Positions 1,864-5,074 of a stretch of DNA of 5,806 nt are shown piece by piece (position 1 is the first letter of the stretch; each line of letters starts with the position of its first letter). Origin of the DNA: a virus (lineage: Duplodnaviria > Heunggongvirae > Uroviricota > Caudoviricetes). A program made the position numbers and the translations under genes. The notes under the pieces were generated by a model. The model saw only the letters and a list, made by a program, of their open reading frames with translations, did no database searches and was not told where the DNA came from. The stretch is taken from the IMG/VR virus record IMGVR_UViG_2541047441_000021; one strand, written 5' to 3'.

Positions 1864-1985
1864 TCGGCAAGGTGTTCTGGTCGGCGCATAGCTGGTAATC
1901 CAACTTTTCCCTGTTCTTTTTATGCAAATTAATCTAATGAAATTGAAAAGATTTTTACCTATTTTGTTGGTTCAGGAGAACATAA

Positions 1986-2267
1986 ATGAGCGATAAACAA
2001 GAAGTTTCCTTAGCACATATCAATGATGTGCTGGAGTCCAAAAATTATATTGAAACTAATGCTGATGGGGTTGTAACCATCGGAACGGATAACAATGGCT
2101 ACGAAGTTTTTAACTTCGTTTTTCTCAATAGCACCCCTGTCATCGGCCATATGAATGGCGAAATCGCAGTGGCAGGAATGCAGCGCACTAAGGTTGCGTC
2201 CGTGACTTTAAGTAAACAGAAGGCCTTCGATTTCTATCAGTCCTTGAAAAGCATGTTCGAGGAATAA
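1986..2267 (+). CDS. Hypothetical small acidic soluble protein (93 aa); first gene of the accessory cassette downstream of cI
   Basis: ORF with RBS AGGAG at 1974-1978 seven nt before the ATG; AT-rich relative to cI; no family recognised by eye. Confidence 0.6.
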   Translation: MSDKQEVSLAHINDVLESKNYIETNADGVVTIGTDNNGYEVFNFVFLNSTPVIGHMNGEIAVAGMQRTKVASVTLSKQKAFDFYQSLKSMFEE

Positions 2268-2273
2268 AAGCTG

Positions 2274-2825
2274 ATGAATGCAGCTCAATCATCTTTGGAT
2301 GAGGGAAAGCTAGTAATTGCTTACTCTGATAAGAATGGCTCTACAGTAGGGCTGGAATTTTCTTCTGTAGCATCAAGCCAAGCAACGCTCTTGATGAAAG
2401 CTTGTTCTGTTGCTGCTTCAGATAAAGAAAAACGGATTGTCACATCGGTTGTGATGGATGATACTGAGATCATTCAAACAACAAGTGATGATGGAGGCGA
2501 CGACATGGATAAGCGATTAGCAGTTCTTGAAGCTGAAGTTGCGCACATCAAGAGCAGCATGGCAGGAATTAAAGAGGATACCCGGAAAATATCTTCTGAT
2601 TCTACTGACGCCAAAAGAGACACCGCTGTACTTTTACAGAAGAGCCTGGATTTTGATGCTTCATTATCTAAGAAACCATCGGTTGACTACTTTGAAGCTA
2701 AATTTTCCGCTTTGGAAACCAAGATAGCAGATGTAAAAGTATGGATGCTCGGGGTTCTCTTGGCCTCGCTTGCTATGCCAACTATATTTTTCCTAATAAA
2801 CTTGTACCTTAAGAAAGGTCAGTAA
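2274..2825 (+). CDS. Hypothetical coiled-coil protein with a single C-terminal transmembrane anchor (183 aa); second gene of the accessory cassette
   Basis: Starts 6 nt after the upstream stop, so probably translationally coupled; acidic linker TTSDDGGDDMD; heptad-like segment KRLAVLEAEVAHIKSSMAGIKEDTRK; hydrophobic C-terminus VWMLGVLLASLAMPTIFFLINLYL followed by KKGQ; followed by an intrinsic terminator. Confidence 0.65.
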   Translation: MNAAQSSLDEGKLVIAYSDKNGSTVGLEFSSVASSQATLLMKACSVAASDKEKRIVTSVVMDDTEIIQTTSDDGGDDMDKRLAVLEAEVAHIKSSMAGIKEDTRKISSDSTDAKRDTAVLLQKSLDFDASLSKKPSVDYFEAKFSALETKIADVKVWMLGVLLASLAMPTIFFLINLYLKKGQ

Positions 2826-2834
2826 TTTAGCAAA

Positions 2835-2858
2835 TCCGGCCACCGAGCCGGGTTTTTT
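2835..2858 (+). terminator. Intrinsic terminator ending the cI-cassette transcription unit
   Basis: GC hairpin CCGGC-caccga-GCCGG (2836-2851) followed by TTTTTT (2853-2858), 10 nt after the stop of the 183-aa gene. Confidence 0.7.
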
Positions 2859-3069
2859 ATTGCCCGCCGATCACTATCAGGACAGCACCTGCCCGCCGGT
2901 CCAAACTATTGATTAAATTACTATAATTCTTAATACAACTCCCATATCCCGCCATCTCGCCACCACCCCATTCGCTCGTTTTTCGAACTTTTCAGCACCC
3001 ATCCTGCTGTTGCCACCGACTTAAGTAAGCAAAACCATCGCGGGTAAAACTATTTACACAAAAAAATCA

Positions 3070-3626: not shown

Positions 3627-4208
3627 TTACTTGTTTTTGCCATGCTTATCCTGAGCGATAAGTTCATCCATAAGACTGTCTTTCTTCCCAGCAAACCTAA
3701 TGTAGCACTCATTTCTATAGCGTTCCGGGATAACAAAACGGTCGATTTCAGGATATCCAGTAGCAGAAGGTACCCGAATAAGAAGCCCTTTTTCGAGCAA
3801 TGAGATTGCTTCAGGGCTTCCCTTTTCTGTCTTTAGCTGGTTATTAGCGGCTACAGCGAATGCCAAATACGCTCTTTCTCCAAGAGTTAACGAATCAAAC
3901 AAATCTTGCACGTATTTCTCTTCTTTAGATTTGCGCTTCTGAGCAGCGAATATCTCAATTCTTTCAGTCACAGCGTGATAAGCGGAATTAACAACGCCGT
4001 TAAGCACATAGCTAACGCAAAACAACAGGATGTAATACATCCAGTAATGAGGAAGGATTTCTGGATTATGCAGGTTTATCCATTCTTTTACGCTTACAGG
4101 CATAACAATAATCAATATAATCAGGATGATTAGCATATGAATCAACTGTTTAAGTGTCATTCCTTGCAGGAAAAAATGCATTAGTTCCTGCCACCATGAG
4201 TTGTTCAT
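3627..4208 (-). CDS. sieB: SieB-like superinfection exclusion membrane protein (convergent with N)
   Basis: 193-aa ORF; N-terminal hydrophobic segments (LIHMLIILIILIIVMPV, YWMYYILLFCVSYVL); size, position between N and ea10, and orientation opposite to the pL operon all match lambda sieB as I recall it. Confidence 0.7.
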   Translation of the reverse strand: MNNSWWQELMHFFLQGMTLKQLIHMLIILIILIIVMPVSVKEWINLHNPEILPHYWMYYILLFCVSYVLNGVVNSAYHAVTERIEIFAAQKRKSKEEKYVQDLFDSLTLGERAYLAFAVAANNQLKTEKGSPEAISLLEKGLLIRVPSATGYPEIDRFVIPERYRNECYIRFAGKKDSLMDELIAQDKHGKNK

Positions 4209-4468: not shown

Positions 4469-4837
4469 ATGTCAAACATCAAAAAATACATCATTGATTA
4501 CGACTGGAAAGCATCAATAGAAATTGAAATCGACCATGACGTAATGACAGAGGAAAAACTTCACCAGATTAATAATTTCTGGTCAGACTCTGAATACCGA
4601 CTCAATAAACACGGCTCTGTATTAAATGCTGTATTAATCATGCTGGCGCAACATGCTCTGCTTATAGCAATTTCAAGCGACTTAAATGCATATGGTGTTG
4701 TGTGTGAGTTCGACTGGAATGATGGAAATGGTCAGGAAGGATGGCCTTCAATGGATGGTAGCGAAGGAATAAGAATTACCGATATCGATACATCAGGAAT
4801 ATTTGATTCAGATGATATGACTATCAAGGCCGCCTGA
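4469..4837 (+). CDS. ea10: Ea10-like protein (lambda early-left gene; putative ssDNA-binding function)
   Basis: 122-aa ORF, the size I recall for lambda Ea10; RBS GAGGA 9 nt upstream; immediately upstream of cIII as in lambda. The protein sequence itself is not recalled, so identity rests on size and synteny. Confidence 0.6.
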   Translation: MSNIKKYIIDYDWKASIEIEIDHDVMTEEKLHQINNFWSDSEYRLNKHGSVLNAVLIMLAQHALLIAISSDLNAYGVVCEFDWNDGNGQEGWPSMDGSEGIRITDIDTSGIFDSDDMTIKAA

Positions 4838-4909
4838 GTGCGGCTTTACCGCATACCAATAACGCTTCACTCGAGGCGTTTTTCGTTATGTATAAATAAG
4901 GAGCACACC

Positions 4910-5074
4910 ATGCAATATGCCATTGCAGGGTGGCCTGTTGCTGGCTGCCCTTCCGAATCTTTACTTGAACGAATCACCCGTAAATTACGTGACGGATGGA
5001 AACGCCTTATCGACATACCTAATCAGCCAGGAGTCCCAAAGAATGGATCAAACACTTATGGCTATCCAGACTAA
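4910..5074 (+). CDS. cIII: CIII, inhibitor of FtsH-mediated CII degradation
   Basis: Translation [54 protein letters not shown] (54 aa) matches lambda CIII as I recall it; RBS AAGGAG at 4898-4903. The ORF-track start at 4838 is an upstream in-frame extension. Confidence 0.95.
   Translation: MQYAIAGWPVAGCPSESLLERITRKLRDGWKRLIDIPNQPGVPKNGSNTYGYPD

Follow-up and report, generated by a model that had tools for sequence, protein, structure and literature searches.

Downstream of the repressor gene cI, the 5,806-nucleotide (nt) window, as we call the whole stretch of viral DNA analysed here (IMG/VR record IMGVR_UViG_2541047441_000021), carries two tightly linked genes, termed A and B, in the slot that phage lambda uses for its exclusion genes rexA and rexB. 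Over this A-B cassette the window is 100% identical to phage VT1-Sakai. It represents the immunity region of VT1-Sakai, that is, of prophage Sp15 of Escherichia coli O157:H7 Sakai, which equals CP-933V of strain EDL933 and is a Shiga-toxin-1 (Stx1) prophage. Gene A (1986-2267, + strand) encodes 93 amino acids (aa) and gene B (2274-2825, + strand, stop codon at 2823-2825) 183 aa. Both open reading frames (ORFs) have good ribosome-binding sites: A is preceded by AGGAGA (1973-1978), 7 nt before its ATG, and B by GAGGA, located within the 3' end of A, 9 nt before its ATG; the gap between the two genes is 6 nt. An earlier note on this DNA, made by a model from the sequence alone, had placed both ORFs at exactly these coordinates and had assigned them to the rexAB slot. 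The assignment holds literally in phage HK544: its cI, operators and pRM are those of lambda, and the cassette stands in place of rexAB at 99.7% identity.

The cassette lies between two sequences of the lambda-type immunity operon. At its left boundary, a linker (1837-1898, + strand) consisting of the final 27 nt of cI and 35 nt past the stop codon is 98.4% identical to the corresponding lambda sequence, which runs from the 3' end of cI into the cI-rexA spacer; lambda, 434 and SfI share this end of cI and the adjoining 35 nt at 97-100%. The AT-rich leader of gene A follows (1899-1985, + strand). At the right boundary stands an intrinsic terminator (2832-2858, + strand), in which our scan detected a hairpin at 2832-2855 (fold -14.7 kcal/mol) followed by a T run. 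Aligned visually, it corresponds to t_imm of lambda (CCGGCC...GCCGGG, T run, TTGCC, CGATC), the annotation of HK544 names it Timm, and a t_imm-type terminator is kept 3' of gene B in loci from Serratia, Cronobacter and metagenomes. The intrinsic terminator that the earlier note described is present; the note ascribed it to the cassette, but it belongs to the backbone of the immunity operon as its t_imm homologue. On the basis of these flanks, we regard the cassette as cargo between two conserved immunity-operon linkers that brings no terminator with it. In two other loci (L003, about 4622-4650, and L016, about 4522-4580), unrelated repressors are followed by fossil remnants of the 3' end of cI. 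These copies indicate recombination at the left linker, which looks like a site where cargo is exchanged by recombination.

Between the flanks the DNA is AT-rich, in agreement with the earlier note: the GC content is 0.40 at 1899-2831, compared with 0.525 in cI and 0.50 in N, and 0.36 in the whole cI-A spacer (1864-1985). Scanning this 122-nt spacer revealed neither a sigma-70-like site with at least 9 of 12 matches nor a + strand terminator, and the note had likewise seen no convincing sigma-70 promoter there. Inside gene B, two + strand sigma-70-like sites occur versus 3.3 expected from shuffles, that is, none in excess. Because the spacer is free of promoter-like sites and + strand terminators, and because t_imm stands after B, the cassette is probably co-transcribed with cI, as had been supposed; cI itself is highly transcribed in lysogens (PMC8585504). 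Proteins A and B were both identified by mass spectrometry in uninduced cultures of O157:H7. The samples containing them were stationary-phase, rumen-fluid or in vivo samples, with A (ECs2991) found in the O157 rumen-fluid proteome, and B is moderately abundant in lysogens. The nonsynonymous over synonymous divergence (dN/dS) amounts to 0.08/1.07 for A, to 0.077/0.39 for the N-terminal domain of B and to 0.032/0.42 for the remaining C-module of B. Since these ratios are well below 1, indicating purifying selection, and since both proteins are detected, A and B are real genes.

Protein A is acidic (isoelectric point (pI) 4.85), lacks any hydrophobic segment on the Kyte-Doolittle scale and belongs to phrog_12039 (E 7e-65), a family of unknown function. 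It contains both motifs that alignments define for its 93-94-aa family, AD..T[VI]G...F[VI]F and QA..FY.SLK..FE. Five beta-strands and a C-terminal helix are predicted, although the AlphaFold2 model, calculated on a shallow alignment, is poor (predicted local distance difference test (pLDDT) 46). The best fold matches of this model are PC4/Sub1 single-stranded-DNA-binding domains, which also combine a beta-sheet with a C-terminal helix; at E 0.35-2.5 and a template-modelling score of about 0.4 they are non-significant, and A is acidic. A as a paralogue of the N-terminal domain of B was ruled out (hhalign E 0.49).

Protein B (phrog_12602, E 7e-124, likewise of unknown function) begins with a variable domain (residues 1-58; 2274-2447, + strand) that is predicted to fold as beta-beta-alpha, with an AlphaFold2 pLDDT of about 70-78 at residues 10-48. 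An acidic linker (residues 59-77; 2448-2504, + strand; pI 4.05), predicted to be disordered (pLDDT <50 at residues 59-75), ends in an invariant GGD and leads into a coiled-coil helix (residues 78-132, as in the model) and a KKPS hinge (residues 133-136; helix and hinge together 2505-2681, + strand). The remainder (2682-2825, + strand) comprises a juxtamembrane helix and a C-terminal transmembrane (TM) tail anchor, modelled as a single helix at residues 137-182, with the TM segment at about residues 157-179 (2742-2810). The coiled coil, a 55-residue helix with heptad spacing, opens with the motif G-G-D-x-M-[ED]-x-R-x-A-x-L-E-x-x-V-x-x-I-K. As determined from the family alignment, G74, G75, D76, R81, L85, E86, V89, I92, K93 and K134 are invariant, and the motif from M-[ED]-x-R to I-K is kept across 50 distant relatives. 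The sole hydrophobic segment of B covers residues 157-175 (Kyte-Doolittle maximum 2.15), so that the last ~25 residues of the second helix form the only TM segment; no signal peptide is present and merely 0-4 residues extend past the membrane span. B is therefore predicted to be a tail-anchored inner-membrane protein with essentially all of its mass, namely N-domain, linker and coiled coil, in the cytoplasm. Among its homologues the hydrophobic tails fall into at least three unrelated sequence types.

To judge how A and B travel, we searched viral contigs with an A profile, which yielded 31 contigs with an A gene. Each of them has, 3-8 nt downstream, a B-type gene whose product bears the conserved motif and ends in a hydrophobic tail, and in 30 of the 31 a repressor-like ORF lies upstream. 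These repressors have at least nine different N-termini, and near-identical cassettes (A 97-100%) occur behind at least six of them. In diverged pairs, with A down to 35% identity, the order repressor-A-B is kept in Serratia, Pantoea, Cronobacter, Enterobacter and metagenomes, and it is also found behind RacR-type repressors in E. coli prophages. Among 5,426 complete E. coli genomes, the window-type cassette is present in 94 and the Rac-type in 13-17; a search for the counterpart in K-12 Rac matched only the repressor, in other strains. Surveying the cI-downstream slot in related prophages, as the earlier note had advised, thus gave A-B in HK544 and behind at least nine repressor types, and a different cargo in phage mEpX1 (L023, 3798-5206), whose cI is 99.8% the same as that of the window and whose slot holds a pair matching the PADLOC candidate defence system PDC-M63 (a DUF6932 protein and a 310-aa protein). 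The cassette is, as judged from composition and distribution, a mobile, AT-rich moron of repressor operons, in line with the acquired moron proposed before. Variants of the locus were also seen. In one Cronobacter prophage (L017, 5519-5815) A is intact and the B position holds just a 98-aa ORF, which suggests decay of B in some prophages. In some loci, as seen at L008 (4346-4465) and in the spacers of L015 and L016, repressor and A are 261-479 nt apart, with small ORFs in between, one of them called as a 39-aa gene.

The pairs are mosaic in a distinctive manner. In 153 pairwise comparisons, the identity of A correlates with that of the B N-domain (r 0.93, with no discordant pair), whereas the identity of A and the B N-domain is hardly related to that of the B C-module (r 0.29). 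In 29 pairs A is at least 70% identical and the C-module less than 50%, and 14 pairs display the reverse. These correlations indicate that A and the N-domain of B act as one unit, and the coiled coil with its anchor as another.

The C-module extends well beyond the A-B family. An exhaustive HMMER search with it returned 57 cluster representatives, and many of these relatives lack the beta-beta-alpha domain and instead carry a short glycine-rich N-terminus ahead of the same motif; profile-profile comparison by hhalign relates the C-module of B to these short relatives at E 1e-35. We inspected their neighbourhoods in 80 viral loci. An A-type gene is absent from all of them, but in 74 of the 80 the B-like gene is preceded by another partner ORF, which ends at most 120 nt upstream and in many cases overlaps it. 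Counted as unique sequences, the partners form the families X1 (about 136-187 aa; 32), X2 (97-132 aa, cysteine-rich; 15) and X3 (91-105 aa; 3). None of the three matches Pfam or PADLOC, apart from PADLOC coiled-coil noise from one member only, and X3, considered as a possible divergent A, aligned with A at hhalign E 0.0047 and a probability of 7%. Mostly, the second gene upstream encodes a repressor: 46 unique proteins gave HTH_3 (24), Peptidase_S24 (14), Phage_CI_repr (6), Arc (4) and Mnt (2) matches. In the P22-like Salmonella phage UPF_BP1 (L106, 2852-3824), a superfamily pair of 94 and 149 aa stands downstream of mnt and before gene 16, the interval in which P22 carries orf59a and sieA. 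The Mnt-like repressor of UPF_BP1 is labelled 'partition protein ATPase', as mnt is in the P22 record. A few superfamily pairs are morons in or beside tail-gene regions. Weak matches of the relatives to XhlA/hemolysin and holin/anti-holin families (3 of 50 to Pfam XhlA, best E 0.0032, and 9 of 50 to phrog_937) and, for a few, to CCDC90 were all sub-threshold and may reflect coiled-coil composition.

Homology and structure searches with both proteins, which the earlier note had proposed, agree with its statement that neither belongs to a known family. A and B have no match in Pfam, NCBIfam or PADLOC (PADLOC-DB v2 hidden Markov models, E up to 1), and in PHROGs they fall only into families of unknown function; B in particular matches neither XhlA (PF10779) nor DUF883 nor any other Pfam family. 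Against PDB sequences, the A profile found no match and the B profile coiled-coil noise only, and fold searches with the two models returned only generic coiled coils or non-significant matches. The claim that the pair does not resemble RexA/RexB likewise stands: in BLASTP, lambda RexA was matched by A at E 1.5 and by B at E 6.4, RexB by B at E 3.2, and no Rex family of Pfam or PHROGs was matched.

Comparison with known systems is informative in terms of position and layout. Like rexAB, the cassette occupies the slot between the cI-end linker and t_imm, places a gene for a soluble protein before one for a membrane protein, and is expressed with the repressor in lysogens. The Rex-like logic of a soluble protein paired with a membrane protein, put forward in the earlier note, is borne out as regards the pairing. 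It does not extend to the proteins themselves: RexA has 279 aa versus 93 in A, and RexB (144 aa) is polytopic and reported as an ion channel (PMC8585504), whereas B, with its long cytoplasmic coiled coil and one C-terminal anchor, is no channel of the polytopic kind. As a mosaic hotspot harbouring BstA and RexAB, the interval between cI and N had been described before (Owen et al. 2021, PMC8585504, citing Degnan et al. 2007). BstA of prophage BTP1 and PDC-M63 of mEpX1 are, like A-B, cargo directly downstream of a prophage repressor, PDC-M63 even behind the cI type of the window; their proteins are unrelated to A and B, however, and PDC-M63 is solely a computational PADLOC candidate. BstA works as a single protein; it localises to where phage DNA is replicated, and its self-immunity element is DNA-based (PMC8585504). 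With SieA of P22, an inner-membrane, prophage-expressed protein as B is, the link is that the homologous module of UPF_BP1, not the cassette of the window, stands in the place of orf59a/sieA; SieA, in contrast, is a single protein that alone suffices for exclusion, and B and SieA gave no local alignment at E up to 100. A coiled coil followed by a C-terminal TM segment, as in the C-module, also characterizes XhlA of the Bacillus prophage PBSX (PF10779) and DUF1640/CCDC90, a likeness of architecture only. XhlA is encoded in lysis cassettes, while the A-B and relative loci that we examined individually lie behind a repressor or among tail genes, none in a lysis cassette. The E. coli tail-anchored proteins ElaB, YqjD and YgaM have an architecture like that of B. 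Neither they nor XhlA and DUF1640/CCDC90 have an A-type partner. Among actinobacteriophage defences, Butters is reportedly a membrane protein with a cytoplasmic partner. Butters, Sbash and CarolAnn resemble A-B in logic only, being reportedly lysogenically expressed pairs that exclude heterotypic phages; they act in different hosts, and homology is not expected.

On the basis of context and architecture, we propose, with a probability of roughly 0.4, that the cassette is a lysogen-expressed, membrane-tethered sensor-effector module of two proteins for phage exclusion, carried as exchangeable cargo of immunity operons. The proposal draws on where such pairs lie (in the rex slot, in the P22 interval of orf59a/sieA, and where BstA and PDC-M63 are also found), on expression in lysogens and on modular shuffling in the style of sensor-effector systems. 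In this mechanism, A and the N-domain of B would form a recognition unit for a cytoplasmic cue of the infecting phage, and the conserved coiled coil with the tail anchor would serve as output. Once triggered, the coiled coil might drive clustering of the tail anchors and thereby compromise the inner membrane, a Rex-like abortive infection brought about by proteins unrelated to RexA and RexB. The pairing of the C-module with unrelated partners in sister modules would be the expected look of interchangeable sensors. A bolder extension, which we consider doubtful, is a modular class of prophage immunity systems, so far overlooked and best documented by A-B, in which swappable soluble sensors (A, X1, X2 and X3) dock on the tail-anchored coiled coil and phage-triggered oligomerisation makes the TM tails form a membrane lesion.

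Exclusion could also act at entry, with B and A blocking genome delivery or ejection proteins at the cytoplasmic face of the inner membrane in a SieA-like manner, without killing. The homologous pair in the P22-type mnt-to-gene-16 interval as well as the membrane anchor and moderate abundance of B in lysogens fit such a block. Yet B has almost no periplasmic part, all variable parts are cytoplasmic, the known entry blockers are single proteins, and B has no similarity to SieA, so that we judge an entry block unlikely and favour recognition after entry with an abortive membrane output. Little probability is likewise given to self-regulation of the prophage, in which the pair would tune the prophage's own life cycle instead of targeting other phages, for instance by influencing switch commitment or by timing lysis with a membrane protein that resembles XhlA or an antiholin. 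The cassette does sit in the repressor's operon, RexA is reported to bias the lambda switch without involving RexB (PMC11077077), and XhlA/hemolysin and holin/anti-holin families are weakly matched among relatives of the C-module. These matches are sub-threshold, however, the cassette lies outside the lysis cassette, and near-identical copies behind at least six unrelated repressors, together with pairs among tail genes and behind mnt, speak against a role bound to a single switch.

The architecture shared with ElaB, YqjD and YgaM and the detection of A and B in stationary-phase, rumen-fluid or in vivo samples might suggest a moron for host fitness, through which B and A would affect the physiology of the host, such as its tolerance of stress or the homeostasis of ribosomes or membranes. 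As B matches neither DUF883 nor another family, and as a strict association with exclusion slots and slots behind repressors, along with exchange of partner families, is typical of phage-phage conflict genes and not of morons with housekeeping-like roles, we hold this to be improbable. More improbable still is an addiction or toxin-antitoxin-like pair that stabilises the prophage, with A checking a membrane toxin B. The order of a small acidic protein before a membrane protein and the tight coupling, by a 6-nt gap here and by overlap in relatives, are in agreement with it. But of the features of type II toxin-antitoxin pairs, the spacer displays no promoter-like site of its own and A no DNA-binding domain, no toxin-antitoxin domain was found, B is moderately abundant in healthy cells, and A is kept beside a truncated B in the Cronobacter prophage L017.

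Several observations weigh against the proposed sensor-effector module as well, and the step to post-entry recognition and abortive output is its weakest. Conservation in B peaks in the cytoplasmic head of the coiled coil and not in the TM tail; together with the at least three tail types, this suits a mere anchor and a conserved contact with another protein more than it suits a specific pore. Co-inheritance of A and the B N-domain can be explained by linkage and homologous recombination at the one conserved stretch, and co-transcription with cI is inferred. In PADLOC, Pfam, NCBIfam and PDB, no homology connects A or B to any tested defence protein, and the structure models are weak (pLDDT 46 for A and 64 for B, the latter also on a shallow alignment), with generic coiled coils as the only fold matches. 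Cargo of this slot is moreover not always purely defensive, as the bias that RexA reportedly exerts on the lambda switch illustrates (PMC11077077). Searches by locus tag, by UniProt/RefSeq accession and in the DefensePredictor supplements, which left most subscription papers outside, found no functional study or phenotype of A or B.

Across the window, the gene order is cII (- strand), cro (- strand), cI, gene A, gene B, terminator, oL/pL with nutL, N, sieB (- strand), ea10/DUF2528, the cIII thermoregulator, gam and bet. The cI-type repressor (1216-1863, + strand; 215 aa) is the first gene of the operon that bears the cassette; it matches Pfam HTH_3/HTH_31 and Peptidase_S24 (E 3e-26) and is annotated as cI in VT1-Sakai, with pRM and operators upstream. 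From t_imm to the oL/pL operators, the stretch 2860-3060 (+ strand) is strongly C-rich and G-poor (GC skew -0.37 to -0.52) and could, given this composition, be a Rho-utilisation-like backstop against read-through from the immunity operon. N (3308/3338-3610) is directly followed by sieB (3627-4208, - strand; Pfam SieB E 1e-25, PHROG 1301), so that the immunity region holds a second, known exclusion gene. An Rfam scan of the window gave a sole match, the cIII thermoregulator Lambda_thermo at 4897-4955 (+ strand; 88.5 bits, E 3e-21), and no RNA element within or beside the cassette.

A-B is a conserved, selected and lysogen-expressed module that moves as cargo of repressor operons and joins a variable unit to a conserved membrane-anchored coiled-coil unit. 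The exclusion function put forward in the earlier note was a reasonable idea; it is better supported by the comparative context and still a candidate. The cassette is easy to test because it is shorter than 1 kb and occurs naturally in HK544, a plaque-forming phage of lambda immunity, and its conserved flanks, the cI-end linker and t_imm, show a route of cargo exchange between immunity types. If the cassette excludes phages, the list of repressor-operon cargo gains a new architecture, a tail-anchored coiled coil with swappable partners; were the modular class to hold true, its effector would be of a novel type for abortive infection, borne in the repressor operons of many prophages of enterobacteria, the Stx1 phage of O157:H7 among them. 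Given phage exclusion by the cassette, the Stx1 prophage of O157:H7, whose cassette type is found in 94 of the 5,426 complete E. coli genomes, would carry an unrecognised defence, which could shape which phages, therapeutic ones included, infect these pathogens.

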